Positions 6,504 to 63,575 of a stretch of 64,000 nt of DNA are shown here, piece by piece. The stretch lies in IMG/VR virus record IMGVR_UViG_3300023179_000013, positions 104,947-168,946 of that record; one strand, 5' to 3'. A program made the translations under genes and the position numbers. Source of the DNA: a virus. A model generated the notes under the pieces. That model was not told the DNA's origin. It searched no databases and was given only the letters and a program-made list of their open reading frames with translations. The stretch's first letter is position 1. Each line of letters opens with the position of its first letter.

Positions 6504-7393
6504 GTAAAATAGATCCAAATAAACTACTAATCAGTAGTGATTTCTATTCCATCCAAGGTGAAGGAATAAGCAGTGGAGTACCATCATATTTCGTTAGATT
6601 AGGTATCTGTAACCTAACTTGCGGTATGAGCCGTAAGTTTGCCAATCAATTAGAGAAAGATAAGAATCTAGAAGACGGTGAAATATTCGTAGGTGATTTA
6701 CATGCTGAAGGTAAAGCAACTTGGACTTGTGATAGTACATCTCAATGGTTATGGAGAGGTGAAGATAAAGAATTCCAATATTTAATTGATAGATGGAAGG
6801 AACAAGGTATCTATGAAGATATTAAGAATAGTACTATCCATATCATTTGGACTGGTGGTGAACCTACAATTAAAGGGCATCAAGAAGCAATTGTTAACTT
6901 TCATAAGTATTGGAATGATATAGTATACTATGAAACATTGAATAAATTAAAAAATACAACTGTATTAGATGAAGATGTATACGATCACATGGATTTAAAT
7001 CCATTTAATGAAATAGAAACTAATGGTACAGTTGTAATTGAAGATAATTTGTTTGAATTAATTGATCAAATTAACTGCTCACCCAAGTTAGCAAACTCAG
7101 GTATGACTAAGAAGCAACGCTTCAACGAAGAAGCTCTTAAACGCATCATGGAACATCCGAATTATCAATTTAAATTTGTAATATCCAATGAAGAAGACGT
7201 ACAAGAAATTTTTAGCGAATTTGTGTTACCACTTAGCATACCTCTTAAGAATGTAGTCTGCATGCCAGGATTAGATGACGTAGCTAACTTTGAAGAGCGT
7301 ACTCAGTTTTGTTTGGAGATGGCTAAGAAGTATAAGTTCCGTGGATTGACTCGTTTGCATATTGCAGCTTGGAATAAAACGTTGAATGTATAA
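6500..7393 (+). CDS. queE: 7-carboxy-7-deazaguanine synthase (radical SAM)
   Basis: FYSIQGEG, FVRLGICNLTC...CDS, TGGEP, ETNG, SPK, RLH. Confidence 0.9.
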   Translation: MSKIDPNKLLISSDFYSIQGEGISSGVPSYFVRLGICNLTCGMSRKFANQLEKDKNLEDGEIFVGDLHAEGKATWTCDSTSQWLWRGEDKEFQYLIDRWKEQGIYEDIKNSTIHIIWTGGEPTIKGHQEAIVNFHKYWNDIVYYETLNKLKNTTVLDEDVYDHMDLNPFNEIETNGTVVIEDNLFELIDQINCSPKLANSGMTKKQRFNEEALKRIMEHPNYQFKFVISNEEDVQEIFSEFVLPLSIPLKNVVCMPGLDDVANFEERTQFCLEMAKKYKFRGLTRLHIAAWNKTLNV

Positions 7394-7599
7394 TGAAAGA
7401 GCTAGATCTTCATGGTTTAAAACACTATGATGTTAAGGACACAGTTGAGAACTTTATTCTAATGAATAGTACCCCATTCCGTATTATAACAGGCAGATCA
7501 GACAAAATGAGAGAACTAGTAGAAACAACATTGAAAAAACATCGTTTTGAATTTTATACTCCTGCTCACAACCCAGGAGAAATAATTGTAATAGATTAA
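7393..7599 (+). CDS. Stand-alone Smr-domain protein
   Basis: LDLHG, IITGR, NPG. Confidence 0.75.
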   Translation: MKELDLHGLKHYDVKDTVENFILMNSTPFRIITGRSDKMRELVETTLKKHRFEFYTPAHNPGEIIVID

Positions 7600-9150: not shown

Positions 9151-9885
9151 ATGCCATTAACATTATCAAATACAAGCGGAGCAGGTAATTTTACATTAGT
9201 TAATAATAGCAATAGTGGTAGACTTAGTATGTCTATCACTAATGCTATAGTTACTAACGGACTTACTTTACAATTAGATGCTAATAACTCTACATCATAT
9301 CCTGGCTCAGGAACTACATGGTATGATTTAGCAGGCACACAACAAAACATTACACTTGTTGGTACACCAACATATACGGCCGCAGCGCCATCATATTTTA
9401 CTTTTAATGGCTCAACACAAAGAGGTTCAGGAACAGGTGCTGTATTATCATCAACAAGCTATACTAAATGTGTATGGTTCTATTTAAACTCATATGTTGA
9501 TAATAATATAGTAAGCAGTGATGTAGGTGGACATTATATGTTTTTCCAAGGAGGAAATAAAATGTATAATGGTCATTCTAACTGGACTGGATTTCCAAGT
9601 AACTATCCATCAACAGCTACATTTAGTTTAAATACATGGTACAATGCAGCACTTACATTTAATACAACTGATGGAATGAAACTTTATATTAATGGTGCAT
9701 TAGATAGTTCTTATACTACAATTAAAACAGCATTTACAGGAGATGGCTCAACAAATATAGCAGCTTATGGAGCAGGTAATTTATTAAATGGTAGAATAGC
9801 TAAAGTTTACTGCTATAATGTATCTCTAACAGCCGCTGAAGTTTTACAAAACTATAATGCTGATAAAGCAAAATTTGGATTGTAA
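9151..9885 (+). CDS. LamG/concanavalin A-like domain protein, probably virion-associated
   Basis: LQLDA..SYPGSGTTWYDL, KLYINGAL, YNVSLTAAEVLQNY. Confidence 0.75.
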   Translation: MPLTLSNTSGAGNFTLVNNSNSGRLSMSITNAIVTNGLTLQLDANNSTSYPGSGTTWYDLAGTQQNITLVGTPTYTAAAPSYFTFNGSTQRGSGTGAVLSSTSYTKCVWFYLNSYVDNNIVSSDVGGHYMFFQGGNKMYNGHSNWTGFPSNYPSTATFSLNTWYNAALTFNTTDGMKLYINGALDSSYTTIKTAFTGDGSTNIAAYGAGNLLNGRIAKVYCYNVSLTAAEVLQNYNADKAKFGL

Positions 9886-9917
9886 TTTGACTTCGTCAAA
9901 ATAAATTCGTATATTTA
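9886..9917 (+). promoter_or_regulatory. Class-1 promoter of the DNA polymerase gene
   Basis: TTTG-N5-GTCAAA-N9-TATATTTA, 6 nt before ATG. Confidence 0.6.
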
Positions 9918-9923
9918 AGGGTT

Positions 9924-12497
9924 ATGTATCAAGCAATTTACTACGATAGATCTACTTACACTTATCATCTGCGTGATGATGAAAAAGGATGGCTTGACTT
10001 CAAGTACACTCCTGAATTATATCAGATTACACCTAATGGTCCTTTAAAGACATTAGATGATAAACGTGCTACTCCAACTGAAAAATATAATTGGAAAGAT
10101 ACCTCATTATACGAGCAAGACGTTGATAGATGTACTCGTGTACTGATTGATCTCTATAAGGACAGTGACGATACTGCCAAATATCAAAACATAGTATACT
10201 TCGATATTGAGTGTGAAATTGGTGGAACTCTAACTACTGAGTACATTAAAACAGCTCCTATGAAGATGACCTCAGTAGCTGTATACGATAATACAACTCA
10301 AAAGTATTACTGTTTAATCCTAGATGAAAAGAAACAGCTGAGCTATATAAATGAAAATAATAGGGAAATTAGACCATTCGATACTGAAGCTGAAATGCTA
10401 GCTGATTTCCTTAATCTATGGGAAGAGTTAGATCCAACTATCATCACAGGATGGAATAGTGGATTCTTCGATGTGCCTTACATGTACTATAGAATGTGTA
10501 ATGTATTAGGCAAAGAACAAGCTGCTCGTCTATCACCACTTCGCAAACTAAACTTTACTGAATGGGATACTGCTCAACCAATTGAGCTAGCAGGTATTAA
10601 TCATCTTGATTATATGTTGCTATTTAAAAAGTTCATTGTAAAGCAAGAACCATCCTATAAATTAGATGATATAGGAGAAAAATACGTTAAATTAAATAAG
10701 ATAGAGTACGAGGGATCACTTGATAGATTATTTCAAACTGATATAAATAAATTCATTCAATATAACTTACGAGACGTAGAAATTATACTTGAGTTAGAAA
10801 AGAAACTCAAATTCATTGATTTAACAGTTGCTATCTGTCATCTATGTCACGTACCATATGAACAGATCTATTTATCAACTGTATTAAATGATGGAGCTAT
10901 ATTGACATATCTTAAACGTCAAGACATAGTATCACCAAATAAACCAACTACAATCAACCCATCACTTAAAGAAGCTACTGGTGATGAATATGCTGGTGGG
11001 TACTTAAAAGAACCTACTCCTGGATTATATCAATGGGTTATTGACTTGGACTTTACATCTCTATACCCTTCAATCATCCGTTCACTCAATATTGGTATTG
11101 AAACGTTAGTTGGTAGAATAGTTAATAGTGGTAAATACGATAACCAATGGACATATGCTGAACTAAAGCAAATGGATCCTGATGATGTAGCAGTTATTGA
11201 AAAATTAAATACTAATTTCACTACCTCCAGAACACAAGTATCAGTAGGTAAGTTAGTTCAAATGATTGAAAACAATAATTGGATTACCTCAGCATCAGGT
11301 GCAATATTCAGAACAGATAAATCATCAGTAGTATGTGATGTATTAACTGACTGGTTCAATAAGCGCGTTGAATATAAAAATAAAATGAAACAAGCTTATA
11401 AATCAGGTGATGCGGCTATGGGTGAATTTTACAACCGCAGACAACACGCTTATAAGATTAAACTAAACGACGTTTATGGCTGCTACGCAATCAACGGCTG
11501 GCGCTATACAGATGGACATAAGATCATTTCGTCTGCTATTACGCTTACTGGTCAACGAGTTACTCAAGAATCAATTAAGTTTGTAAATAAATGGATGAAT
11601 GATAAGCTAGGTACTGAAGATAAAGATTACGTTGTAACATCAGATACCGATTCATTATTCATTCAAGTTAAGGATCTATTAACTGCTGATACAAATGATA
11701 AAGCAGCTGTAATTAAAAACATATTAGAGATTGCTACTGAAGTTCAAAAAGCAGCAAATGCATTTATTGGACAATTCGCTATTGAAGCATTTAATCTAAA
11801 TGAGCGTGAGCATTACTTCGAATTAAAGCAAGAGGTAATTATTGAAAGGGGTTATTTTGCTGGTAAACGTCGCTACGCAATGTTGATTGTAAATAAGGAA
11901 GGTGTTGACACTGAAGAGATGATTATGATGGGATTAGATCTAATGAAATCTAATATGCCTCCACTATATAAGAAATTCGGTCAAAATTTACTAACCGAAA
12001 TCATGCGCGGTAAACCTAAAGCTGAAATCGATAAACAAATTATTGATTTTAAAGTATCGCTAGATCAATTACCTTGGGAAGACATTGCTAAACCAACTGG
12101 CGTTAAACAAATTAATTCATATATTGCTAAACGACCATCACCAGGTGAAATATTTAGTGAATTTAAATTAAAAGCCCCAATTAATACAAAATCAGCAGTA
12201 TATTATAATGATTTACTTAAATTTAAAAAATTAGACAAGAAATATTCAAGATTCGTAGAAGGCGATAAGATGAAATATGTATCGTTGAAACCAAATCCCT
12301 ATAACATAGATACACTTGGCTTTAGAGGTAATGGTGAAGATCCTGAATTTATACTTGACTTTATAAACAAATATGTTGATAGAGAAGAAGCATTCAATTC
12401 AGTACTACTAAACAAACTAACAGGTGTATTTAATGACTTAGGATGGGATTTCCCAGTTTTAAACTCAAAAATTAACAAATTCTTTAAATTTATGTAG
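9924..12497 (+). CDS. Family B DNA polymerase (T4 gp43-like) with 3'-5' exonuclease
   Basis: FDIE, GWNSGFFD, YNLRD, DFTSLYPS, KIKLNDVYG, SDTDS. Confidence 0.95.
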   Translation: MYQAIYYDRSTYTYHLRDDEKGWLDFKYTPELYQITPNGPLKTLDDKRATPTEKYNWKDTSLYEQDVDRCTRVLIDLYKDSDDTAKYQNIVYFDIECEIGGTLTTEYIKTAPMKMTSVAVYDNTTQKYYCLILDEKKQLSYINENNREIRPFDTEAEMLADFLNLWEELDPTIITGWNSGFFDVPYMYYRMCNVLGKEQAARLSPLRKLNFTEWDTAQPIELAGINHLDYMLLFKKFIVKQEPSYKLDDIGEKYVKLNKIEYEGSLDRLFQTDINKFIQYNLRDVEIILELEKKLKFIDLTVAICHLCHVPYEQIYLSTVLNDGAILTYLKRQDIVSPNKPTTINPSLKEATGDEYAGGYLKEPTPGLYQWVIDLDFTSLYPSIIRSLNIGIETLVGRIVNSGKYDNQWTYAELKQMDPDDVAVIEKLNTNFTTSRTQVSVGKLVQMIENNNWITSASGAIFRTDKSSVVCDVLTDWFNKRVEYKNKMKQAYKSGDAAMGEFYNRRQHAYKIKLNDVYGCYAINGWRYTDGHKIISSAITLTGQRVTQESIKFVNKWMNDKLGTEDKDYVVTSDTDSLFIQVKDLLTADTNDKAAVIKNILEIATEVQKAANAFIGQFAIEAFNLNEREHYFELKQEVIIERGYFAGKRRYAMLIVNKEGVDTEEMIMMGLDLMKSNMPPLYKKFGQNLLTEIMRGKPKAEIDKQIIDFKVSLDQLPWEDIAKPTGVKQINSYIAKRPSPGEIFSEFKLKAPINTKSAVYYNDLLKFKKLDKKYSRFVEGDKMKYVSLKPNPYNIDTLGFRGNGEDPEFILDFINKYVDREEAFNSVLLNKLTGVFNDLGWDFPVLNSKINKFFKFM

Positions 12498-46517: not shown

Positions 46518-47057
46518 ATGCCTCGCCTCCGTCGCTCCAAATTAGACCCATTAAGTAGAATCATGACTCTCGGTGATATAGAAACCGATATAGTGAATGA
46601 ATTAATTCACAACATATATGAGATAAATGAGGAGGACGCAAAAAAACAAACTACAGAACCAATAAGGCTCATTATCAATTCATCTGGTGGGGAAATATAT
46701 AGTGGACTTGCTTTAATTGATGTAATTAGTACTTCGTTGACTCCAATCCACACAATGTGTCATGGTGCTGCCATGTCTATGGGATTGATAGTATTTGCTG
46801 CTGGTCATCACAGAACAGCGAGCCCTAATGCTACATTCATGTATCATGAAGCTATGTATGGTCTTGAGGGAAAAACAGCATACCATAGGCAAGAAATGAA
46901 AGAAGCAAATCGCATTGATAAGATATGTGATGATTACTTATTATCTCGCACTAAATTGACACAAAAATTATTAGATAACGTTAAAAATACACAAGCAGAA
47001 TGGTATTTCGATGCGAAAACAGCGTTGAAATATAATGTGGTAAATGAAATTCTGTAA
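46518..47057 (+). CDS. clpP: ClpP-like serine protease
   Basis: INSSGG, GAAMSMG (Ser), FMYH (His). Confidence 0.85.
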   Translation: MPRLRRSKLDPLSRIMTLGDIETDIVNELIHNIYEINEEDAKKQTTEPIRLIINSSGGEIYSGLALIDVISTSLTPIHTMCHGAAMSMGLIVFAAGHHRTASPNATFMYHEAMYGLEGKTAYHRQEMKEANRIDKICDDYLLSRTKLTQKLLDNVKNTQAEWYFDAKTALKYNVVNEIL

Positions 47058-50239: not shown

Positions 50240-50340
50240 TGACCCTTAGCTCAGTAGGTTAGAGCAAACTTATAGTACTCACGCCACTACAAGCGTCGAG
50301 GAAATAAGTCGTGCCGCTGGTTCGATTCCAGCAGGGTCAG
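50240..50340 (+). ncRNA. tRNA-like RNA with 27 extra nt in the anticodon loop
   Basis: Intact acceptor, D and T arms; 34-nt anticodon loop region forming an extended hairpin. Confidence 0.8.
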
Positions 50341-50359
50341 CAAATTGATCTTTGAAATT

Positions 50360-50988: not shown

Positions 50989-51350
50989 GGGGGAGCCAGG
51001 TATTGCTCCGTAATGTGAAGGTACCACTACATGCAGACGGTTGGTAGAAGTCGTCTTTAAACAAACTGCAAACAACAACTGACGAAATGTCAACAATGAC
51101 CTTCGACGACCTTATGGCGTTCGTAGGTGCCGATTACGCTGTAGCAGCCTAATCCGCAAGGGGCAGCTGATAGCCTTGCAACAGAACAGCACTATAGGTT
51201 TCCTGTTTTTCCTAAAAAATAGGTGGTGGATGGCACGTTAACCAAAACTAGCGGCCCCAAATTACTGATCAGTTAATTCAGATCTAAGCATGTGATACGC
51301 TGGTGTTATTGTTCCTTACGGATACACGGGTTCGATTCCCGTCTCCTCCA
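50989..51350 (+). ncRNA. ssrA: tmRNA
   Basis: GGGGGAG/CTCCTCC-A acceptor with G3:U pair, GGTTCGATTCC T arm, tag frame ending DYAVAA-stop. Confidence 0.92.
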
Positions 51351-51404
51351 CAAGTACTTACTCCCCTTCCCATAAAACAGGGCGCTTAGAGTAAGTCTTT
51401 TCTT

Positions 51405-51435
51405 AAGGGTGGTTCGCTAGCGAACCGCCCTTTTT
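51405..51435 (+). terminator. Intrinsic terminator after tmRNA
   Basis: GGGTGGTTCG/CGAACCGCCC stem plus TTTTT. Confidence 0.85.
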
Positions 51436-51463: not shown

Positions 51464-51979
51464 ATGAGAACTTTATTTACAACAATATTGATATCATTAT
51501 ATACGGTACTAGCCGCTCAAAAAGCTGTTCCTGAGGGAGAAATAAATTCACCCACATCTCCCTTCACCACAGTACATATTGGTACTGTTACTAATAAAGT
51601 TAAAATAGGCCCACTTACTGGAAATAAAAACTTAGCATTTGGTGTTAAAAACATAACTGAAGAAGCTATACTAGATAAAGGATATGATTTGACTGATAGC
51701 TCAGAACTTAGATTAGATTTAGAGATAATTTATCTTGACATTCAACAAACATCAACTGGTGTAAGTGTGTTTCATAAAACAGAAAACGAAACAATAATTA
51801 GAATAAAAGGTATTCTTTATATAAACAATAAAAAATCAAAAGAATACGTTGCAACAGGCAAGTCCTCCGAAATATCTACATCTACAATGATTATTGATGA
51901 AGGTGGTGGTTTTAATCAAGCTTCGGCTCGTTCTGCTTTGAAAAAAACCATTATTAACCTAATCGAAAAACTCCTATGA
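51464..51979 (+). CDS. Exported protein, possibly distantly CsgG/TolB-N-like
   Basis: Signal peptide (AA-Q); layout resembles 54490-55245 (FGVKNITEE vs LGVTNIVVE; FNQ..ALKK vs FNQ..KKAL). Confidence 0.5.
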   Translation: MRTLFTTILISLYTVLAAQKAVPEGEINSPTSPFTTVHIGTVTNKVKIGPLTGNKNLAFGVKNITEEAILDKGYDLTDSSELRLDLEIIYLDIQQTSTGVSVFHKTENETIIRIKGILYINNKKSKEYVATGKSSEISTSTMIIDEGGGFNQASARSALKKTIINLIEKLL

Positions 51980-53865
51980 AAAAACTATTATTAGCAATTG
52001 CGCTTTTAATCAGTTATGTAACCACATTCGCTCAAACACCTCAAATTGGACATTTCCAAACACTAGCCACTGTTAGAAGAGGTGATACATTAGATGTTAC
52101 CTGGTATTATAGACCTGGTGCTCCTGACATTCGTACATTCCAAGTTGATTGGCAGTACAAGAAAACATTATTAACTTATTTATCTACCACGGTAGATGCT
52201 TCAGTTAATGGTATGTCTCCATCTGTAAGTTATAAAACTTGGGATAACTACAAGTATAATAACTATTCAAATGGTACTTATACTTATTCATCAAATACAG
52301 ATTGGACAGTAGGACGTAACTATTTAGTATTATCAAGTGGTAATACAATTGGTTCAAACGGCTACATAATCCACAACAAATATAAGATTAATGCTGTAGC
52401 TCCAAACTACGTATCAGATACAATTACTGTAAACTGGGCTCGTATGTTTGACGTGAATGGTAATACTATTGGTGATAACGTAGCTCAACTTACAAACCAA
52501 AAATTAGCTATTAAATTATTAGGTAACTTAACATTATCAGGTAAAGTATGGTTAGGACCAAATATGGCTTTAAAACCTGTAGTTATCTGTACTCAAGCTA
52601 ATAACGGTGCTTTTATAGATTCAATCACAGTAAATACTGATGGTACTTATACTTTAGATAATATAGATGAAAATACAAGGTATAAATTAACAGTTAAATT
52701 CCCATCTGCTTTAGCAACTATTAGAGATAATGCTGTAACAATTGCTGATGCTGTTAAAACATATGATGAATATACAGTAACAGACGTTAACCAAACATTC
52801 AGTCGTCAGTACTTAAAATATGGTTTATCTTATTTGATTGCTGATGTTAACAAAACAGGTGCATTAGATGGTGGTGATGCTTATTCAATCTATGCTTCAG
52901 TATCAGGATTAAAACCAATTGATACAACTAAAGTATTAAACGTATTTAAAAAAGATGTATATGATTCATTAGTATTAGGTGCTAACCAATGGAATGATTG
53001 GGTTACTTATATTAACGGAGTAACTTACATTTACGATAGTGTAGGTACAGTTAACTTAACTGGGGTTGATATTAAGTATTTCATCTTAGGTGACGTTGAT
53101 AGAAGCCATTCATCTCCAGTATACGATGCAGGTGGTGGATTAATCGTAGGTGCTAGATATATTGGTAATTTAGATATTAGCATTCCAAATGTATCTGCTC
53201 CAACAGGTCAAGCAATGTATGCTTCATTTAATATGAATACAAACGGTATTAAAAATGATGGTCTACAGTTTGAAATGAGATACGATCCAACTAAAGTTAA
53301 ATTTGAAGAAATTGTATCTAATATTCAAGGTCCTTGGTTACAATATTTAACACATGATGAAGCAAATGGTATTATCCGTTTTGGTGGAATGAATAATCAA
53401 ACTGCGGGTTCATTAGTTAATAATGTAACTCCATTTAGATTAAAATTCTCTCCAATTGGAACAGGTGATGTATTAACTAACGTATATGTTAGACAATTAA
53501 TGGATGCTTCTGATAAAAACGGAGATCACTTTAACATCAATTTACAATCTGATTATGTAGTATTAGCTACAAGACCAGCTCCAATTGCAACACCTGAGAA
53601 AGAAATAACTGCTATGATTCGTCCAAATCCAACAAGTGGATTTTTTGAATTGGTAGTTACTTTCCCAAACAACAATATGGCAATGAATGCTAGAGTATAT
53701 GATGTACAAGGTAGATTAGTAAAAGAAATAGGTAAAGTAGCTAGTGATAATTACTATACAACTGTAATTAAACAAGTTGATTTAACGCAAGCTAGAGATG
53801 GTCACTATTTATTAGTGTTAGATAACGAAAGTAAAAAATTAACTAAACAATTTATAAAAGCATAA
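51976..53865 (+). CDS. T9SS cargo: cohesin-like, Ig-like, dockerin-like, cohesin-like, type A CTD
   Basis: Signal peptide FA-Q; FQVDWQY and GLQFEMRYDP cohesin-like; ADVNKTGALDGGD; IRPNP..VYDVQGRLV..GHYLLVL..KQFIK. Confidence 0.75.
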   Translation: MKKLLLAIALLISYVTTFAQTPQIGHFQTLATVRRGDTLDVTWYYRPGAPDIRTFQVDWQYKKTLLTYLSTTVDASVNGMSPSVSYKTWDNYKYNNYSNGTYTYSSNTDWTVGRNYLVLSSGNTIGSNGYIIHNKYKINAVAPNYVSDTITVNWARMFDVNGNTIGDNVAQLTNQKLAIKLLGNLTLSGKVWLGPNMALKPVVICTQANNGAFIDSITVNTDGTYTLDNIDENTRYKLTVKFPSALATIRDNAVTIADAVKTYDEYTVTDVNQTFSRQYLKYGLSYLIADVNKTGALDGGDAYSIYASVSGLKPIDTTKVLNVFKKDVYDSLVLGANQWNDWVTYINGVTYIYDSVGTVNLTGVDIKYFILGDVDRSHSSPVYDAGGGLIVGARYIGNLDISIPNVSAPTGQAMYASFNMNTNGIKNDGLQFEMRYDPTKVKFEEIVSNIQGPWLQYLTHDEANGIIRFGGMNNQTAGSLVNNVTPFRLKFSPIGTGDVLTNVYVRQLMDASDKNGDHFNINLQSDYVVLATRPAPIATPEKEITAMIRPNPTSGFFELVVTFPNNNMAMNARVYDVQGRLVKEIGKVASDNYYTTVIKQVDLTQARDGHYLLVLDNESKKLTKQFIKA

Positions 53866-53868
53866 TTT

Positions 53869-54201
53869 ATGTCAGAAGAAACAAACGTACAAGACCATAA
53901 CGACGGAACTTGGTCAGGTCTTAAAAAAACAATCATTGGTACTATAAGTACAGCTATATTAGGTGCTGGTACTTGGTTTATGACTACTTTCTTTGGTGGC
54001 CATAAAGAAGATAAAGAAGAACCTAAAACAGAACAAGCTACTCCAGCTGCTCAACCTACTATTGTTATTAATAATACTCAACAGCAACAACAAGCTGCTG
54101 GTGGAACAAAAGTAATCGAACGCGTAGTTGAAAAACCAGCTGCTAAACCAGCTGAGCCAGCTAAGCCTAAGAAGGAGTTTTCGGAAGAACCAAAATGGTA
54201 A
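53869..54201 (+). CDS. Single-TM protein with Gln/Pro/Ala-rich tail
   Basis: One TM, QQQQQ, KPAAKPAEPAKP. Confidence 0.6.
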   Translation: MSEETNVQDHNDGTWSGLKKTIIGTISTAILGAGTWFMTTFFGGHKEDKEEPKTEQATPAAQPTIVINNTQQQQQAAGGTKVIERVVEKPAAKPAEPAKPKKEFSEEPKW

Positions 54202-54223
54202 TTAACAATTAAAATTTAAAAGT

Positions 54224-54490
54224 ATGAAATGGTTTAAATCGTTGTTCGATGATAACAACACAATCAATGAAAAATCAGTTGTAGGATTTTTAGCTTTCTT
54301 TATGATGGTAATTGCTTTAGGCGTTGACATCATTACTGGATGGCTTGGAAGAGAATTCATGATTAATGAATTTATCTTTGATGGCTTTATGGTAATTGTA
54401 TTAGGTTCATTTGGTATTGGATCTATTGACAAGTTTATCAATGCTAAGCATAATAAAAAACCAGAAGAAGAAACTCCAACTGAAGAATAA
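54224..54490 (+). CDS. Two-TM membrane protein (holin-like size)
   Basis: Two TM helices, charged C-terminus. Confidence 0.5.
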   Translation: MKWFKSLFDDNNTINEKSVVGFLAFFMMVIALGVDIITGWLGREFMINEFIFDGFMVIVLGSFGIGSIDKFINAKHNKKPEEETPTEE

Positions 54491-55245
54491 TGGAAAAAAA
54501 GTCTAATATGATTAAAGCAATTATTGGTATAATTACGTACTTCATATTGATGTTTACACTAGCTACTAAGTGTAATGCTCAAGTAGTAGGTAAAACTACA
54601 ACTGAAGATTATAAAGCATCATTTGAAAAAAAATCAAATATTGATAGTCTATTAGATTATGACGGCCCTAAAATCCCAATTCAGATACTTAGCTTAGGCA
54701 TCAGTGATGATGTCTATGCTATGTATCCTGAATTAAAGGATAAGCGTGTTGGGTTAGGTGTAACTAACATTGTAGTTGAATTTTTAGAAGAAACTAACCA
54801 CTTTACTTTTACTGAAGATAAAACTGAAATTAAAAATAGAATGGTTAAGCAATTCCAAGCGTCACAATCTGGAATTACTGAAGATAAATTAGATGGTAGA
54901 GGTAAAATTAGATTAGCTCATTACTTCGCTTATATAGAAGTATATGACTTTTCAGTTTCAGAAGATGAAACAGTAAATATGAAAGATGGAGTTAAAAATA
55001 CTGTTGTGACTCGTCTTGGTTTACAAGTTAAATTTGTTGATGCTGAAACAGGTGAATACTTCACTGGTTCGGGTTTAGGTGAAGCTAAAACAGTTAGAGA
55101 GTTAACATTAATGAATGATGATAACTTTAGTGAAGTTAAATTTAATCAATCAACAATAGGTACCTCAACTAAAAAAGCACTTGAAATAGCGGCGGGTAAA
55201 ATATTACTTCGTATGCATAAGAAAGGTATATTTAAATTACAATAA
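54490..55245 (+). CDS. CsgG/HfaB-family-like exported protein
   Basis: Signal peptide NA-Q; FLEETNHF, VYDFSVS, LGLQVKFVDAETGEY. Confidence 0.65.
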   Translation: MEKKSNMIKAIIGIITYFILMFTLATKCNAQVVGKTTTEDYKASFEKKSNIDSLLDYDGPKIPIQILSLGISDDVYAMYPELKDKRVGLGVTNIVVEFLEETNHFTFTEDKTEIKNRMVKQFQASQSGITEDKLDGRGKIRLAHYFAYIEVYDFSVSEDETVNMKDGVKNTVVTRLGLQVKFVDAETGEYFTGSGLGEAKTVRELTLMNDDNFSEVKFNQSTIGTSTKKALEIAAGKILLRMHKKGIFKLQ

Positions 55246-55246
55246 C

Positions 55247-55354
55247 ATGGCACGCTCTAAAAAGAAACATTACAATCAACGCAGTATAAAAGCTGGTCGT
55301 AAAACAGCTAAACGCATAGCAGCAAATCATAAGGTTTTAAAATCATTAAAATAA
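55247..55354 (+). CDS. 35-aa very basic peptide (not in ORF track)
   Basis: MARSKKKHYNQRSIKAGRKTAKRIAANHKVLKSLK. Confidence 0.45.
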   Translation: MARSKKKHYNQRSIKAGRKTAKRIAANHKVLKSLK

Positions 55355-55365
55355 AACTCAAATGA

Positions 55366-56808
55366 TTGAAAAAATTAAGAACATATTTAATATTATTAAG
55401 CTTATTGCTGATAAGCTATTTAAAAAGTAACGGACAAACTCTTACTTATCAATTTATTGATCCGTGTACTAAGGTTGTAACATTTTTCTCTGTACCAGCA
55501 ACAGGAACAACAATATTTTTTCTAGGCAAATCAGCACAGTTTACTTCAGCAGATGTCGCATCAGGGGCATTTGCTGCTTGGATAAACCAAGCTTATACTG
55601 ATTATAGAAAAGTATCACCTTGTGGAGTACAACAAGGACAAATAACACAAAATCAAATTACATCACAAATTATTGGAAACACGGTTCAAAGTGTTGTAAG
55701 TAGTATTATGTCTTCAGCTCAATCCGTTGCTGGTGGAACAATTAGTGCTGGTGGAACAGATGCTGCTTCAAAAGGTAAAACCGAATCCGATAGCAAAAAG
55801 AAAGATAACAATGGAAATAATAACGGCAATAATGGCACTACTTCTAATGGTAGTAGTGGCACTGGGAGCAATACAAATGGCTCAGGAAATACGCAGAATG
55901 GGAGCAATACTTCTGGGGGCTCTAGTAGTAGCGGGACAGGGAATAATGGTAGTGGTGGTACTAGCGGGGGCGGTAATAATGGCAATAACTCAAATGGCAA
56001 TCAACAAAATCAAACAGAAAATAAAAACGGTGAAGAAGTAGGAGCTACAACAACAATAAATGTTGATGCTCAAAACCAAAAAAGTGAAACTAGTGGTGAT
56101 AATGGAGGAGGAGGTGGGGGAGGTAAAGGTGGAGGTAAAAGTAATAGCAAAAGTAGCTCTTCAAACCCAGTAATAGTATCATCTGACTTTACTACAGCAC
56201 AAAATCTAGACAAATCATTTACTCCAATACTTAATTTAAGTATGTCTCAATCATCAATGACAGGAATGTCAAGTTGGGGTACTACAGCCATGATATGGTT
56301 TAATTTTAAACAATTTGCCTTATCAGGTAAATACACTAAAATTAACTTTAGTAAAAATGGTAAATTAAAATGGGTACATAATATTAATTTAACTGCGGTT
56401 TACTCATATGGCAATATACTTGGGTTCGTTGGCTATAGCGGCATTTTAAACGCAGGTAAATGGGGTGTTACGGGCTTTAATACAAGCGCAGCAGCAACAT
56501 TAATGACTGAAGATAAAACAACGTTTATTTCCCCTTCAATTACTGCTTTTTATACTAGACCATTTAAAAGTGGTAAACGTTTAACCATATCTCCTGAGTT
56601 ATATGTTATGTCAACTCCGTTGATATATTCTACTAAGGAGAAAGTAACAACAACAGATAGAACATTTAGTGCGTTTATAGGTAGTGGGTTTGATTATCAA
56701 ATAACAAAACGCTTTAAAATGAACATGAATTATAAAGCAAATTTGTCTACTAACCCTGATTTCCCTATATTGTCATTTTTCCTAATTGGAAGTAAAGTTA
56801 ACCTATGA
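55366..56808 (+). CDS. Exported protein with Gly/Asn/Ser-rich linker and C-terminal beta-barrel-like domain
   Basis: Signal peptide NG-Q; low-complexity tract; alternating strands ending FLIGSKVNL. Confidence 0.6.
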   Translation: MKKLRTYLILLSLLLISYLKSNGQTLTYQFIDPCTKVVTFFSVPATGTTIFFLGKSAQFTSADVASGAFAAWINQAYTDYRKVSPCGVQQGQITQNQITSQIIGNTVQSVVSSIMSSAQSVAGGTISAGGTDAASKGKTESDSKKKDNNGNNNGNNGTTSNGSSGTGSNTNGSGNTQNGSNTSGGSSSSGTGNNGSGGTSGGGNNGNNSNGNQQNQTENKNGEEVGATTTINVDAQNQKSETSGDNGGGGGGGKGGGKSNSKSSSSNPVIVSSDFTTAQNLDKSFTPILNLSMSQSSMTGMSSWGTTAMIWFNFKQFALSGKYTKINFSKNGKLKWVHNINLTAVYSYGNILGFVGYSGILNAGKWGVTGFNTSAAATLMTEDKTTFISPSITAFYTRPFKSGKRLTISPELYVMSTPLIYSTKEKVTTTDRTFSAFIGSGFDYQITKRFKMNMNYKANLSTNPDFPILSFFLIGSKVNL

Positions 56809-57428
56809 GAACATTATTATTATTTTTATTGTTGAGTGTAAATGTGTTTGGTCAAGACACTATCACTATTCAACACAAAGCCTATTCAACTACATTTAGT
56901 AAATCAAAACATTATCCTGTTAAGGTAGAATGGTGGGTAACTAAAAACAGTTTAGTTTGTGATAACAAAATTAAACGTGGTGATAAATTTATACCTGATC
57001 CTAAATTAGCAACTGAAACTGATTTACAATCAAGTTATACAGGCCAAGGATTTGACCGCGGACATAATTTCCCAGCAGCTGATGCCGTTTGTGATCAAGT
57101 ATCAAACGATGAATCGTTTTACTTTAGTAACATGACTGCTCAATACCCAGCTTTAAACAGAGGTGATTGGAAATCTTTAGAATCATTTATTCGTGATTTA
57201 GCTTTACAAAACGATTCAACTAAAGTATGGTGTGGATCAGTTGGTGAAGATAAAAAGATAGGTATTGTTTCTGTACCTAAACAATGTTGGAAAGTTATTT
57301 ATGTAAAAAAAACAAATGAATGGTTAGCTTATTTATTTAATAATGACCTAAGTAAAGCTGATGGAATTGAAAATAATAAAGTAAAAGTGTCTGATATAGA
57401 AAAATTAACAGGATTCAAGTTTAAGTGA
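56805..57428 (+). CDS. Exported DNA/RNA non-specific endonuclease (NucA-like)
   Basis: Signal peptide FG-Q; DRGH, SNMTAQ..LNRG.W..LE. Confidence 0.88.
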   Translation: MRTLLLFLLLSVNVFGQDTITIQHKAYSTTFSKSKHYPVKVEWWVTKNSLVCDNKIKRGDKFIPDPKLATETDLQSSYTGQGFDRGHNFPAADAVCDQVSNDESFYFSNMTAQYPALNRGDWKSLESFIRDLALQNDSTKVWCGSVGEDKKIGIVSVPKQCWKVIYVKKTNEWLAYLFNNDLSKADGIENNKVKVSDIEKLTGFKFK

Positions 57429-58858
57429 GAAAACTACTAACCATATTATTACTATTCCCACTATTGGTATTTGGGCAGTCTATTACTGCACCACCAGGTA
57501 GAACCTACCAGGTGAATGTTAGTGGACAAGACGCTAGTGGATTTGTGATTAGTGGTTTTACTACAGAAACATTATTAACATCAATTGGTTTTGTTAACCC
57601 ACCAGCAGGTGTAACATTTAGTGTTACTACAACTACTGGTTTAACATTTGCTACTGGTTATAGCTCTTGGACAAACCAAACACGTTTAAGTTTTACAGGT
57701 ACTCAAGCTAATGTGAATAACGCTTTAGCATCATTGAAAGTAAATACAGGTGCTACTACAGGTAATGTTCAAATATCAATATCAACAACAGTAAACCCAT
57801 CAGGTTACTATTACAATGCTATTAATGGTCACTTTTATTTACCTGTATCAACGGGCCAGTATTACACAACAGCTAGATCATTAGCCACTCAACAAACATT
57901 TAAAGGACAAACAGGTTATCTTGTAACAGTTACTTCGGCAAATGAAGAAAATTTCATTATTGCTAATGTACCACAAAGTAATATTTGGATCGCGTTAACG
58001 GATGAAGTAACAGAAGGATATTGGAAAATAGATGCTGGACCTGAAGCAGGTACTTTAATTAAAACATCTAATGGGCAAACAACGGGTAATATAGCAGGCC
58101 AATATAATAACTGGTGTGGCGGCGAACCTAATAACTCTGGTAATGAAGACTATGCTGTAACTAAATGGAGTGGAGGTTCATGTTGGAATGACTTACCTAA
58201 TACATACGCTTGCGCTTATATAGTTGAATTTGGTACTTGGTCTAATCCAGCAGATGCTACATTTACAGGTTTTTATACAGCTAATACTACTAATACAGTA
58301 GCAATAACTAATAAATTAAGTGGAACAGTAACTGTACCAACATTAACGTCATATCCAGTACTTACATTATATAAAGTAGTGAATGGAGTTGAAACATTAG
58401 TTGATTATAAGACAGTAGCATCAAATGGTACTTATACATTTGTATTACCAAATCAAAATACAACTTATAAATTAGTACCATCATTAACAGTACAAGGTGT
58501 AACATCGACTGATTTTAATTTGGGTTGGGGTGAAGCACAAAATATAAACACACCTAATAATTTAACACCTGGGTTAGTAATGACAGGAACTAAACAATGG
58601 AAAGCGGCTGATGTAAATCAAAATGGAGTATTAGATTTAGGAGATGCTTTTTTAATTGCGGCTCATATTAGTGGATACAAACCTATAACACAGGTATTAT
58701 GGTTTAATGCTACTGATTATGATTTAATAACCAATTCTAATTTTGCTACAATTACCCCTGTAACATCATTTACAATCAATGTTACAACTAGTGATGTTAC
58801 TCAAAACATCAAATATTGTATATTAGGTGATATTAATTTATCTCATTCGTCGAATTAA
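57425..58858 (+). CDS. Exported C-type lectin with Ig-like and dockerin-like domains
   Basis: Signal peptide FG-Q; WIAL, EPN, WND; ADVNQNGVLDLGD. Confidence 0.75.
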   Translation: MRKLLTILLLFPLLVFGQSITAPPGRTYQVNVSGQDASGFVISGFTTETLLTSIGFVNPPAGVTFSVTTTTGLTFATGYSSWTNQTRLSFTGTQANVNNALASLKVNTGATTGNVQISISTTVNPSGYYYNAINGHFYLPVSTGQYYTTARSLATQQTFKGQTGYLVTVTSANEENFIIANVPQSNIWIALTDEVTEGYWKIDAGPEAGTLIKTSNGQTTGNIAGQYNNWCGGEPNNSGNEDYAVTKWSGGSCWNDLPNTYACAYIVEFGTWSNPADATFTGFYTANTTNTVAITNKLSGTVTVPTLTSYPVLTLYKVVNGVETLVDYKTVASNGTYTFVLPNQNTTYKLVPSLTVQGVTSTDFNLGWGEAQNINTPNNLTPGLVMTGTKQWKAADVNQNGVLDLGDAFLIAAHISGYKPITQVLWFNATDYDLITNSNFATITPVTSFTINVTTSDVTQNIKYCILGDINLSHSSN

Positions 58859-58868
58859 ATAGGTGAGT

Positions 58869-58901
58869 GATTGGGATAACTTGGTTGTCCCAATCCTTTT
58901 T
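58869..58901 (+). terminator. Intrinsic terminator closing the exported-protein operon
   Basis: GATTGGGATAAC/GTTGTCCCAATC stem plus T tail. Confidence 0.75.
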
Positions 58902-60366: not shown

Positions 60367-60810
60367 ATGATAAAGAAATTCATCCTAACCCTGTGTTTAT
60401 CGTTAATAATCAATATGGCCTCTAGTTTCACTACAGACCCTATTAAAGAGGAAGTGGAAGCATTCATTAATAAATGGTGGAACGTACCTTATGTTTACGG
60501 AGGCACAACAATGCGTGGAATTGATTGTTCAGCATTTACACAACGCTTCTATAAAGAGATATTTGATAAGAAATTACCTCGTACTGCTCGTGAACAATTC
60601 AAATACACTGATAGAATAGATAAGGACAGTTTGCAAATGGGTGATTTAGTATTCTTTAGTAGTAAATTAAGCCCAAGTGGATGGCACGTTGGTGTTTATT
60701 TATGGAATGGTGAATTTGTACATGCCGCTAATAGAAAAGATGATATTAAAATAAGTTACTTATCTGATTCCACTTATCAGAAGTCATTTAAGGGGGCAGG
60801 ACGAATTTAA
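60367..60810 (+). CDS. NlpC/P60 cell-wall peptidase with signal peptide
   Basis: PYVYGG, GIDCSAF, LPRTA, GDLVFF, HVGVY. Confidence 0.9.
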   Translation: MIKKFILTLCLSLIINMASSFTTDPIKEEVEAFINKWWNVPYVYGGTTMRGIDCSAFTQRFYKEIFDKKLPRTAREQFKYTDRIDKDSLQMGDLVFFSSKLSPSGWHVGVYLWNGEFVHAANRKDDIKISYLSDSTYQKSFKGAGRI

Positions 60811-60834: not shown

Positions 60835-60954
60835 ATGGATGATTATCAAGGCAAACGACCTAAACAGGTAGAAGACAGTGAAAAAATAGTTACTTGGGCT
60901 CTAATTTGTTTTATTATATCAGTTATAGCTTCGGCTATTGCTAGCTTATTATGA
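60835..60954 (+). CDS. 39-aa TM peptide (not in ORF track)
   Basis: C-terminal TM; ATGA overlap with next gene. Confidence 0.45.
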   Translation: MDDYQGKRPKQVEDSEKIVTWALICFIISVIASAIASLL

Positions 60955-61706
60955 AAACAGTAGTCATAGGAGATATTCACGGGAGATCAATCTGGAAATT
61001 GATTGTCCATATGGAGAACCCGGACAGGGTTATCTTTATAGGTGACTACTTTGATTCATTTGATATCTCAGGTGTTGAACAGATTTATAATTTTAAAGAA
61101 ATAATTGAATATAAAGAAACATCATTCACAAACGTTGGTACCGATACTCAACATAAAACAGAAGTTATTATGTTAATCGGTAATCACGATCATCACTACT
61201 ACCCTGAAATAGGAGATAATGGTACTAGCGGTTATCAAAGAGGAATTGCTCCAAACATTATTCAGGTTATAGATGAAAATAGAAAACATCTACAAATAGC
61301 TTATCAAATGGATGAGTTTCTATTTAGCCACGCTGGTGTTAGTAGTGTGTTTATGGATGAAGTGTTTGGGGTTAATGGTTGGCAAGTAGAAACTCTCACT
61401 GACCAACTCAATGAAATGTTTATGTATCGCCCAGGGGTATTCTCATTTAATGGACTTGACCCTTATGGTGATGATGAATATCAAACACCAATTTGGATTA
61501 GACCTCGTTCATTAATGAGAGCCAATCGCAATACATTACGCACACGATTTATTCAAGTAACAGGCCATACTCAAGTAAATAAACTTGATTTAGCAGGCGC
61601 TCAAAAAGCAGCTGGTGGTAGATATTATTTGATTGATTGTTTAGGAACTAGTGGTGAATACTTGGTTATTCAAGATGGAGATCTTACCGTTGGACAAACA
61701 AGATAA
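60951..61706 (+). CDS. Calcineurin-like metallophosphoesterase
   Basis: GDIHG, GDYFD, GNHD, HAG, GHT. Confidence 0.88.
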   Translation: MKTVVIGDIHGRSIWKLIVHMENPDRVIFIGDYFDSFDISGVEQIYNFKEIIEYKETSFTNVGTDTQHKTEVIMLIGNHDHHYYPEIGDNGTSGYQRGIAPNIIQVIDENRKHLQIAYQMDEFLFSHAGVSSVFMDEVFGVNGWQVETLTDQLNEMFMYRPGVFSFNGLDPYGDDEYQTPIWIRPRSLMRANRNTLRTRFIQVTGHTQVNKLDLAGAQKAAGGRYYLIDCLGTSGEYLVIQDGDLTVGQTR

Positions 61707-62786: not shown

Positions 62787-63575
62787 ATGTCAAACGAATT
62801 GAACACAAACAGCATGATGTCAAATAATGCACTCACGCTAGATCAAATTAAACAAATTGCTCCTTCAGTATTCACTGAAGCCAAAGCATCTCACCTCACA
62901 GACAAGTATATTCAAACTCCAACATCACGTGTTGTAGAGGACTTGATGAATTTGGGATGGCAAGTAACTAAAGCCCAAGAGGTTAAATCTCGTAAGTATA
63001 AGGGATTCCAAAAACACATCGTTGTATTCCGAAACCCGGACATTATGATTAAGGGTAAAGATGGTGATGATGCGTTTCCTCAGATCCTACTTACCAACTC
63101 ACATGATGGTAAATGTGCATTTAATTTCCGAGTAGGTATCTATCGCTTAGTATGTTCTAATGGATTGGTAATTGCTGATGCTGAATTTAGCGATGTATCT
63201 ATTCGCCACGTGAATTATACATTTGAATCACTACAAGCTAAAGTTGCTGATTTGATCTCTAAATTGCCTGGATTGGTTCAGAAGATTAATCTGTTCAAAT
63301 CAACAACACTGACTGAAGACCAAATGCGTGATTTTGCTACTAAAGCAGCTGCGCTGCGAACTAAAGCACACGTTGATGTAGATGGATTGCTTACCTCAAC
63401 CCGTACACAAGACGAAGGTAGTGACTTGTGGGTTGTATTTAATCGTATTCAAGAGAAACTAGTGGGTGGAGGTTACACCTACAATAGAGGACGTAAAGCA
63501 CGATCAGTGAAATCGTTCCAAAAAGATATTGAACTTAATGAGCAGCTATTCGAGCTGGCTGGTTCTTACCTTTAA
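62787..63575 (+). CDS. DUF932/DUF945-family protein
   Basis: APSVF, ILLTNSHDG, YRLVCSNG, LWVVFNRIQE. Confidence 0.85.
   Translation: MSNELNTNSMMSNNALTLDQIKQIAPSVFTEAKASHLTDKYIQTPTSRVVEDLMNLGWQVTKAQEVKSRKYKGFQKHIVVFRNPDIMIKGKDGDDAFPQILLTNSHDGKCAFNFRVGIYRLVCSNGLVIADAEFSDVSIRHVNYTFESLQAKVADLISKLPGLVQKINLFKSTTLTEDQMRDFATKAAALRTKAHVDVDGLLTSTRTQDEGSDLWVVFNRIQEKLVGGGYTYNRGRKARSVKSFQKDIELNEQLFELAGSYL

Follow-up and report, generated by a model that had tools for sequence, protein, structure and literature searches.

A phage gene block predicted to send a cohesin scaffold with a T9SS sorting domain, a lectin with a dockerin-like module and CsgG-superfamily proteins to the envelope of a Bacteroidota host

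The IMG/VR virus record IMGVR_UViG_3300023179_000013 is 168,946 bp long and carries direct terminal repeats; the 64-kb stretch analyzed here, which we call the window, is its last part. Within it we found a block of eight co-oriented genes (window positions 51464-58858) encoding a predicted cohesin scaffold with a sorting domain of the type IX secretion system (T9SS), a lectin predicted to dock on that scaffold, and a protein with the fold of CsgG. We read the block as an accessory module conserved in T4-like phages of Bacteroidota akin to Immutovirus. Its products would go to the envelope of the infected cell and not into the virion; taken as a whole, together with the mechanism proposed below, this explanation has in our view about an even chance of being right. 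The window is phage DNA, because the record has terminal repeats and the window holds genes for a DNA polymerase of T4 type and for a clamp loader; a GroEL gene is also present, and all large open reading frames (ORFs) lie on the + strand. Flavobacterium phage vB_FspM_immuto (Immutovirus, 160 kb; hereafter immuto), represented by three isolates, is the sole relative in culture and the one cultured phage in which we found the block. The eight genes are mostly tightly packed or overlapping, and two strong terminator-like hairpins flank them, as follows (a hyphen in a signal peptide marks the cleavage site).

51405 to 51432, + strand: terminator-like hairpin (12-bp stem, 7 GC pairs, T run) that ends the transfer-messenger RNA (tmRNA) gene (tmRNA end at 51353) and bounds the cassette
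51464 to 51979, + strand: g171, predicted exported protein of 171 aa with signal peptide LAA-Q, probably a small CsgG/LptE-superfamily paralogue of g251
51976 to 53865, + strand: g629, the scaffold, with a signal peptide and cohesin-like, immunoglobulin (Ig)-like, dockerin-like, type I cohesin and T9SS C-terminal domain (CTD) parts
52030 to 52524, + strand: g629 aa 19-183, N-terminal cohesin-like domain (fold search) and predicted docking site
52528 to 53151, + strand: g629 aa 185-392, Ig-like (CarboxypepD_reg-like) domain and helical dockerin-like module (paralogy to g477 aa 298-476)
53164 to 53580, + strand: g629 aa 397-535, predicted type I cohesin fold (structural alignment)
53596 to 53862, + strand: g629 aa 541-629, type A T9SS C-terminal sorting domain (hidden Markov model and fold)
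53869 to 54201, + strand: g110, small membrane protein read as bitopic (sequence; hydrophobic stretch seen by eye)
54224 to 54490, + strand: g88, 88 aa, two transmembrane segments and a charged C-terminus (hydropathy); a variable member
54490 to 55245, + strand: g251, predicted exported CsgG-superfamily protein without a lipobox (fold); the most conserved gene of the block
55366 to 56808, + strand: g480, signal peptide, two-cysteine domain, linker and C-terminal domain (nt 56161-56805) (alignment and pattern)
56805 to 57428, + strand: g207, predicted exported DNA/RNA non-specific endonuclease (DRGH; PF01223); a variable member
57425 to 58858, + strand: g477, predicted exported C-type lectin (Lectin_C) with an Ig-like and a dockerin-like module, without a CTD
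57824 to 58249, + strand: lectin domain of g477, aa ~134-275
58502 to 58855, + strand: dockerin-like module of g477, aa ~360-477
58869 to 58895, + strand: terminator-like hairpin (12-bp stem and T run) closing the cassette

A reading made earlier from the letters and their ORFs (the sequence-only reading) had delimited this unit by terminators at 51405 and 58869 and had listed six Sec signal peptides, each followed by glutamine. The ORFs, the hairpins with their 12-bp stems and the cleavage sites were all recovered: the signal peptides of the six larger proteins end in AA-Q, FA-Q, NA-Q, NG-Q, FG-Q and FG-Q. The glutamine at position +1 is invariant or nearly so among homologues, being kept in 44/44 distinct homologues of g629, 32/32 of g477 and 19/19 of g480. 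This preference, the Q-rule, is specific to substrates of signal peptidase I (SPI) in Bacteroidetes (PMC5837995). The products of the block are therefore predicted to be exported in a Bacteroidota host, and a role as virion parts is very unlikely.

We modeled g629 with AlphaFold2 from 35 homologues (mean predicted local distance difference test, pLDDT, 86.8). Two cohesin-like domains had been proposed for it, and both were seen in the model. The region at aa 397-535 has the nine-stranded jelly roll of cohesins and aligned with the cohesin 4uyp_A at a Z score of 16.9 (root-mean-square deviation, rmsd, 2.0; 136 residues aligned by structural alignment); in the fold search, the top 22 matches were cohesins placed on this region, and the top 44 were all cohesin entries. 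The N-terminal domain (aa 19-183) resembled cohesin modules of C. perfringens (2vo8, Z 14.8, rmsd 2.4, 132 aligned; 2jh2, Z 14.4). The Pfam Cohesin model (PF00963) scored 15.6 bits on g629, under its cut-off of 24.1, and was passed by the g629 homologues of locus L067 (38.4 bits) and of immuto (immuto_15, 36.7 bits). Searches of the PDB by sequence and profile with g629, g251, g171 and g480 returned nothing useful.

The C-terminal end of g629 (aa 549-628 of 629) scored above the cut-offs of both T9SS sorting-domain models (PF18962, 32.5 bits against 27; TIGR04183, 30.9 against 23), in agreement with the type A CTD that had been proposed, and its predicted fold is an Ig-like sandwich close to the CTD of PorU (6za2_B, Z 10.3, rmsd 2.2, 86 aligned). 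It was the sole CTD that a profile search found in the 169-kb genome. Between the two cohesin folds lie an Ig-like domain (aa 185-241; CarboxypepD_reg, E 7e-4) and a helical module (aa 246-392) with a conserved loop, DVNKTGALDGGD, followed by a helix and ending in ILGDVDRSHSS. By its modeled structure and its sequence motifs, g629 is a scaffold in which a pair of cohesin folds is combined with a single dockerin-like module and a T9SS sorting domain of type A. The cohesin folds are those of cellulosomal and non-cellulosomal cohesin-dockerin systems (C. thermocellum CipA and OlpB; the toxin complexes of C. perfringens), the C-terminal one being type I as in the cellulosome and the N-terminal one of the C. 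perfringens type (2vo8/2jh2). Like type A cargo of the T9SS (the CTDs of RgpB and PorU), g629 combines a C-terminal Ig-like sandwich scoring above the cut-offs with a Sec signal that follows the Q-rule; unlike that cargo in Bacteroidota, it is viral, and a sister clade encodes the CTD-like domain in a lipoprotein apart from the scaffold.

The last gene of the block, g477, had been read as a C-type lectin with a dockerin-like domain and no CTD. Its lectin domain passed Lectin_C (PF00059; 28.5 bits against a cut-off of 22.6), its closest solved relatives are langerin and mannose-binding-protein domains, and the EPN and WND motifs of its calcium/sugar site are invariant in 26 sequences; no CTD was present. 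The C-terminal 180 aa of g477 are paralogous to g629 aa 186-382 (35-39% identity) and repeat both the loop (DVNQNGVLDLGD) and the terminal motif (ILGDINLSHSSN) of that region; the alignments of homologues show a conserved DxNxxGxxDxxD loop in the modules of both proteins. From these features g477 is a lectin of the calcium-dependent EPN/WND type that carries the same dockerin-like module as g629.

The sequence-only reading had called for a multimer prediction of the cohesin-dockerin pairs, and this supported docking. When the two cohesin domains of g629 were submitted to complex prediction together with the g477 module, an alignment being supplied for each, the model reached an ipSAE of 0.78, against 0.01 for the best control. 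This mark was attained by 58/80 solved complexes and by 2/110 mismatched pairs; the runs shared at least 98% of contacts, and the partners had a pLDDT of at least 89. The predicted interface joins aa 53-164 of g629, in the N-terminal cohesin-like domain, to aa 364-419 of g477, which hold the helix of the conserved calcium loop. We therefore place g477, as a prediction, on the N-terminal cohesin of g629. A control in which the C-terminal cohesin was kept and the N-terminal one replaced scored 0.01, which neither supports nor contradicts docking of the lectin on the C-terminal cohesin. The pass itself may come from likeness, because cohesin-dockerin complexes have already been solved: it shows a cohesin-dockerin-like geometry and not binding as such.

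A possible partner for the module inside g629 is suggested by immuto, which encodes the scaffold in two separate genes (L001:8206-9297 and 9299-10030), each with its own signal peptide. The first product, immuto_14 (363 aa), corresponds to g629 aa 1-377 (hhalign 92%) and comprises the N-terminal cohesin-like domain, the Ig domain and the dockerin-like module; the second, immuto_15 (243 aa), consists of Cohesin and Por_Secre_tail. Because the scaffold is divided in this way, the internal dockerin-like module and the C-terminal cohesin may be partners, forming a chain of anchor, adaptor and lectin. In GenBank the immuto genes of the block are labeled only as cohesin and lectin domain proteins. 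As in known cohesin-dockerin assemblies, a module with a calcium loop and helix is predicted to sit on a cohesin, the order of anchor, adaptor and cargo is hierarchical, and a constant docking module goes with differing cargo; unlike them, the block is encoded by a phage, its anchor would be a T9SS CTD instead of an SLH domain or a sortase signal, and its cargo is a lectin and not an enzyme.

The CsgG-like assignment of the sequence-only reading stood for g251, on its predicted fold, and less firmly for g171. No Pfam model, CsgG (PF03783) included, matched g251 itself at E 0.1; among its 38 relatives found by phmmer, 16 matched Pfam CsgG (best 1.9e-17) and 7 matched LpoB, and CsgG is the name given by JGI to some of its close relatives. 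The AlphaFold2 model of g251 (pLDDT 79.9) had CsgG as its best Foldseek match (E 2.8e-7) and aligned in VIA-align with the CsgG entries 4uv2_P (Z 13.7, 176 aligned) and 4uv3_C (Z 12.8). A search independent of Foldseek again placed CsgG first (Z 13.2 vs 10.3 for the next fold), followed by PelC, FlgT, LptE and others, so that among CsgG and its fold relatives (PelC, FlgT, LptE, GNA1162-like, TraT) the alpha/beta fold of g251 lies closest to CsgG. The signal site of g251 and its near kin is of SPI type (CNA-Q), and distant relatives have lipoboxes ending in GC; at the positions of the membrane hairpins of CsgG (aa 127-144 and 206-221), the loops of g251 are short, polar and modeled with low confidence. 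The model thus makes g251 a member of the CsgG superfamily of ring-forming proteins associated with the outer membrane. Its relatives match Pfam CsgG and are lipoproteins, as CsgG is; unlike CsgG, g251 has no lipobox, no evident amphipathic hairpins and no Pfam match of its own, and no Pfam or NCBIfam match to the curli partners CsgA, CsgB, CsgE or CsgF was found among the eight block proteins.

The smaller protein g171 could be aligned from end to end with the g251 family (hhalign 80%, E 1.3e-5, 123 columns), with the two most conserved motifs of each family superposed, and had a weak match to Lipoprotein_16 (E 0.009); individual GNA1162-like and CsgG proteins yielded no hhalign match to it. 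In all probability g171 belongs to the superfamily of g251 as a smaller member. In g480, an N-terminal domain of ~100 aa with two invariant cysteines is followed by a low-complexity linker of very variable length and by a conserved C-terminal part of ~215 aa, which shows an alternating amphipathic beta pattern and an end resembling a beta-signal (...FFLIGSKVNL). The nuclease g207, recognized as such from the outset, matched Endonuclease_NS (PF01223) at 138.3 bits against a cut-off of 23, contains the catalytic motif FDRGHNF, and was the only block protein matched in PHROGs (phrog_14168).

Two small membrane proteins had also been listed. This held for g88, which has two hydrophobic segments (aa 14-42 and 45-68), and in part for g110, whose single weaker stretch was seen by eye and falls under the hydropathy threshold of 1.6. 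The extended tail of g110 is rich in Pro, Ala, Lys and Glu and ends in EEPKW, a motif that recurs in loci L026 and L067. In the majority of relatives, and likewise in marine contigs, the interval from g110 to g251 is occupied by a further small membrane family (motif GEWKELLLLMLGA.IGSYGKIIDYWFSD; L026:8379-8786, L086:5499-5813); the window lacks this GEWKELLLLMLGA.IGSYGKIIDYWFSD family and has g88 in its place. The gap between g251 and g480 holds a very basic ORF of 35 aa (MARSKKKHYNQRS...; window 55248-55352), and in relatives this gap is absent or contains other genes.

Relatives of g251 occurred in 538 IMG/VR stretches, and identity to g251 ranged from 68 to 96% across the 80 IMG/VR loci kept. 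In a large protein collection the family formed ~6,460 clusters at 90% identity and only 247 at 50%; it is therefore compact and heavily sampled. The block kept its gene order in most of the related IMG/VR contigs. Taking the 57 related loci flanked on either side by 4.5 kb or more, we counted the presence of the other genes, and most of them were co-conserved: g171 was present in 57/57 loci, the scaffold in 54/57, g480 in 52/57, g110 in 51/57, and the lectin or another cargo bearing the dockerin-like module in 50/57. The cargo proteins vary (477, 582 or ~765 aa, some with Ig_7 or an extra cohesin) and keep the dockerin-like module. The cassette is also present on contigs of 317 kb (L043, rated 100% complete) and 321 kb (L045), about twice the size of this genome, which are either much larger relatives or concatemers.

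A close relative of g251 was found in 2 of 185,579 cellular species genomes, both times on a contig of a metagenome-assembled genome (MAG). One of the two, L084 (JBBAJS010000010.1, a 112-kb contig in a Sediminibacterium MAG), probably represents a phage contig that was placed in the bin of its host, and hints at Chitinophagaceae hosts for part of the family. Of 401 Bacteroidota genomes, 53 had relatives, and these were distant, bona fide CsgG lipoproteins only. In 12 Bacteroidota genomes, nothing related to g171, to g480, to the scaffold or to the lectin was found next to the bacterial CsgG genes: the neighbors were unrelated or formed a trio of CsgG, DUF4810 and GNA1162-like proteins. One bacterial relative of g251 (L113:8207-10501) lies in such an operon, consisting of CsgG, a small ORF, DUF4810 and a GNA1162-like gene, with the lipoprotein trio conserved. 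In marine TARA contigs, a g251 homologue with 38% identity was accompanied by a Cohesin-CTD protein of 646 aa, a nuclease and small membrane proteins; the genes of 346 and 170 aa that follow this homologue were considered as counterparts of g480 and g171 and rejected as unrelated. Both in immuto and in the TARA contigs the block follows replication genes (RecA, exonuclease, DnaB), directly so in TARA, and is adjoined by the nuclease.

Single small proteins by which lytic phages modify the envelope of the host are well known, and those with known roles mostly exclude superinfecting phages or mask receptors (Imm and Sp of T4, Llp of T5; also Cor); in T4 the excluded DNA is degraded in the periplasm. 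The favored explanation of the block extends this theme. After Sec export, g629 would be carried to the cell surface by the T9SS of the host, taking the lectin along, and its dockerin-like module would engage its own C-terminal cohesin, in cis or between molecules, which would fit the split scaffold of immuto. Beneath this surface arm, g251, g171, the barrel-like g480 and the membrane protein g110 would form a periplasmic and outer-membrane assembly that anchors or serves it. The purpose would be to protect the infected cell and the progeny by masking a glycan receptor and excluding superinfecting phages, and DNA arriving in the periplasm would, in the case of this genome, be broken down by the exported nuclease. 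We hold this purpose with low confidence; it is favored because the known envelope proteins of lytic phages mostly act in this way, because the block sits with replication genes in relatives, and because a surface lectin could cover a glycan receptor. The likeness to Imm, Sp, Llp and Cor, which are small exported or membrane proteins acting on the envelope of the infected cell, is hypothetical as to function; there is no kinship in sequence or fold, and the block is far larger and modular.

Several observations weigh against this explanation. The multi-protein envelope complex foreseen by the sequence-only reading gained from the tight synteny seen in related phages, from the predicted docking and from the split scaffold of immuto, and lost by the following. 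In 13 related loci the scaffold ends right after the C-terminal cohesin and has no CTD; directly after it these loci encode a lipoprotein of 116-125 aa (lipobox cysteine) with a sub-threshold CTD-like domain, for example L026:7585-7962, L067:9222-9578, and L016:6775-7125 and 7137-7505. The fused CTD and the separate lipoprotein are perfectly complementary across loci, and delivery of the scaffold by the T9SS is therefore not universal; use of the host T9SS is inferred from the CTD only, and g477 has no CTD, so that its piggy-back route to the surface is assumed. The nuclease (8/57 loci) and g88 (22/57, lying elsewhere in others) are inconstant members, and a role based on the nuclease is therefore not general. 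As regards the CsgG-like arm, synteny is its sole link to the cohesin arm; g251 lacks a lipobox and its hairpin tips are polar, so that a membrane channel is not evident; and taking g480 for an outer-membrane beta-barrel is a reasonable guess drawn solely from its alternating pattern, since g480 had no match in Pfam or the PDB, and PorP/SprF (PF11751) and OMP_b-brl_2 (PF13568) were absent across the genome.

The modules of g629 and g477 also differ from dockerins, and of this part of the sequence-only reading the conserved loop stood while the family match did not. They are larger; the best score against Dockerin_1 (PF00404) was 17.4 bits vs 22.9 (E 0.005-0.009, over half of the model); and they contain one canonical calcium loop and helix and not the duplicated F-hand, the second site being degenerate (GDV(D/N)xSHSS, or GDVxxSHSS) with no helix after it. 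Because of the sub-threshold Pfam scores and the single canonical loop, we use the name dockerin-like and not dockerin.

The same surface lectin could serve the behavior or nutrition of the host without any exclusion, by sticking infected cells to particles, algae or other host cells for transmission or resources. The intact EPN/WND sugar site, the display of the lectin on a T9SS-type scaffold and the differences in docked cargo among phages (Ig_7, extra lectin parts, 760-aa forms) would all suit such a module; however, no enzyme domain was found on any cargo examined, and the CsgG-like pair, the barrel, the membrane proteins and the nuclease would be left without an explanation, so that we consider it unlikely, if worth keeping in view. 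A bolder proposal, to which we allow a slim chance, makes the block a self-contained envelope machine: the CsgG-like ring, the g480 barrel and g110 would span the periplasm and secrete or anchor a scaffold whose dockerin-like module and C-terminal cohesin would link one molecule to the next in head-to-tail polymers, yielding a multivalent lectin fiber on infected cells that would reprogram contacts between cells and between cells and phages.

A role in lysis and egress is improbable. Here g88, with its 88 aa, two transmembrane segments and charged tail, would be holin-like, g110, which resembles a membrane anchor with a long extended periplasmic tail, would build a spanin-like bridge with the outer-membrane-type proteins g480, g251 and g171, and the nuclease would thin released DNA for the escape of virions; an NlpC/P60 peptidase is indeed encoded 1.5 kb downstream of the block. 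Yet in immuto and TARA the block lies among replication genes, distant from the lysin candidate, g88 is missing or elsewhere in most relatives, the block contains no endolysin, and cohesin, dockerin-like and lectin parts do not fit lysis.

The fold search bears on another proposal, which we regard as distinctly improbable: with PelC and PelBC among the next-best folds of g251 (Z ~10) and glycosyltransferases (GTs) upstream of the block, a PelC/CsgG-like ring and a barrel, as in PelBC, could export a phage glycan made by the upstream 25-kb glycan island, with the lectin holding the polymer. But g251 scores CsgG clearly over PelC, the block has no inner-membrane polysaccharide transporter or polymerase, the GT genes of immuto are ~35 kb away from the block, and no match to GT1 was found in a block-bearing relative that is 99% complete, so that the link to the glycan island is not constant. 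That the proteins are fibers or decorations of the virion, where Ig-like and lectin domains are common, and that their signal-peptide-like N-termini are incidental, is hardly credible given canonical cleavable signal peptides in 6/6 larger proteins with Gln +1 conserved across homologues, the T9SS CTD of g629, the lipoprotein relatives of g251 and the position of the block outside the structural region.

The sequence-only reading knew of no characterized phage system of this kind, and our literature searches likewise brought up no paper describing a phage system with cohesin, dockerin, T9SS or CsgG parts; in BFVD, one other phage protein is named CsgG. The nearest precedent comes from phages of P. 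gingivalis, which encode Q-rule proteins of unknown function that were proposed to modify the host outer membrane; unlike the block, these are single genes of unknown fold, with no cohesin, dockerin, CTD or CsgG parts reported (PMC10367356). If the explanation favored here, an accessory module acting on the envelope of the infected cell, is true, a modular multi-protein surface assembly combining the cohesin-dockerin principle with the host T9SS would give viruses a new means of remodeling a bacterial surface. Aquatic metagenomes contain the family in abundance, and its cultured representative, immuto on Flavobacterium sp. LMO8, makes direct testing possible; the block would also supply, for surface display in Bacteroidota, a natural cohesin-dockerin pair that is compatible with the T9SS.

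Elsewhere in the window, a tRNA cluster and the phage-encoded tmRNA gene (50989-51353; Rfam RF00023, 61.4 bits; ARAGORN tag ADYAVAA*) lie upstream of the block, the tmRNA directly so. ARAGORN predicted a tRNA-Val(cac) of 95 nt at 50247-50341, on which the Rfam tRNA model was silent at its gathering score, unlike on its five neighbors. A ClpP-like protease is encoded at 46518-47057, and downstream of the block we noted the NlpC/P60 peptidase, a possible lysin (60367-60810), a calcineurin-like phosphoesterase (60951-61706) and a DUF932 gene (62787-63575).

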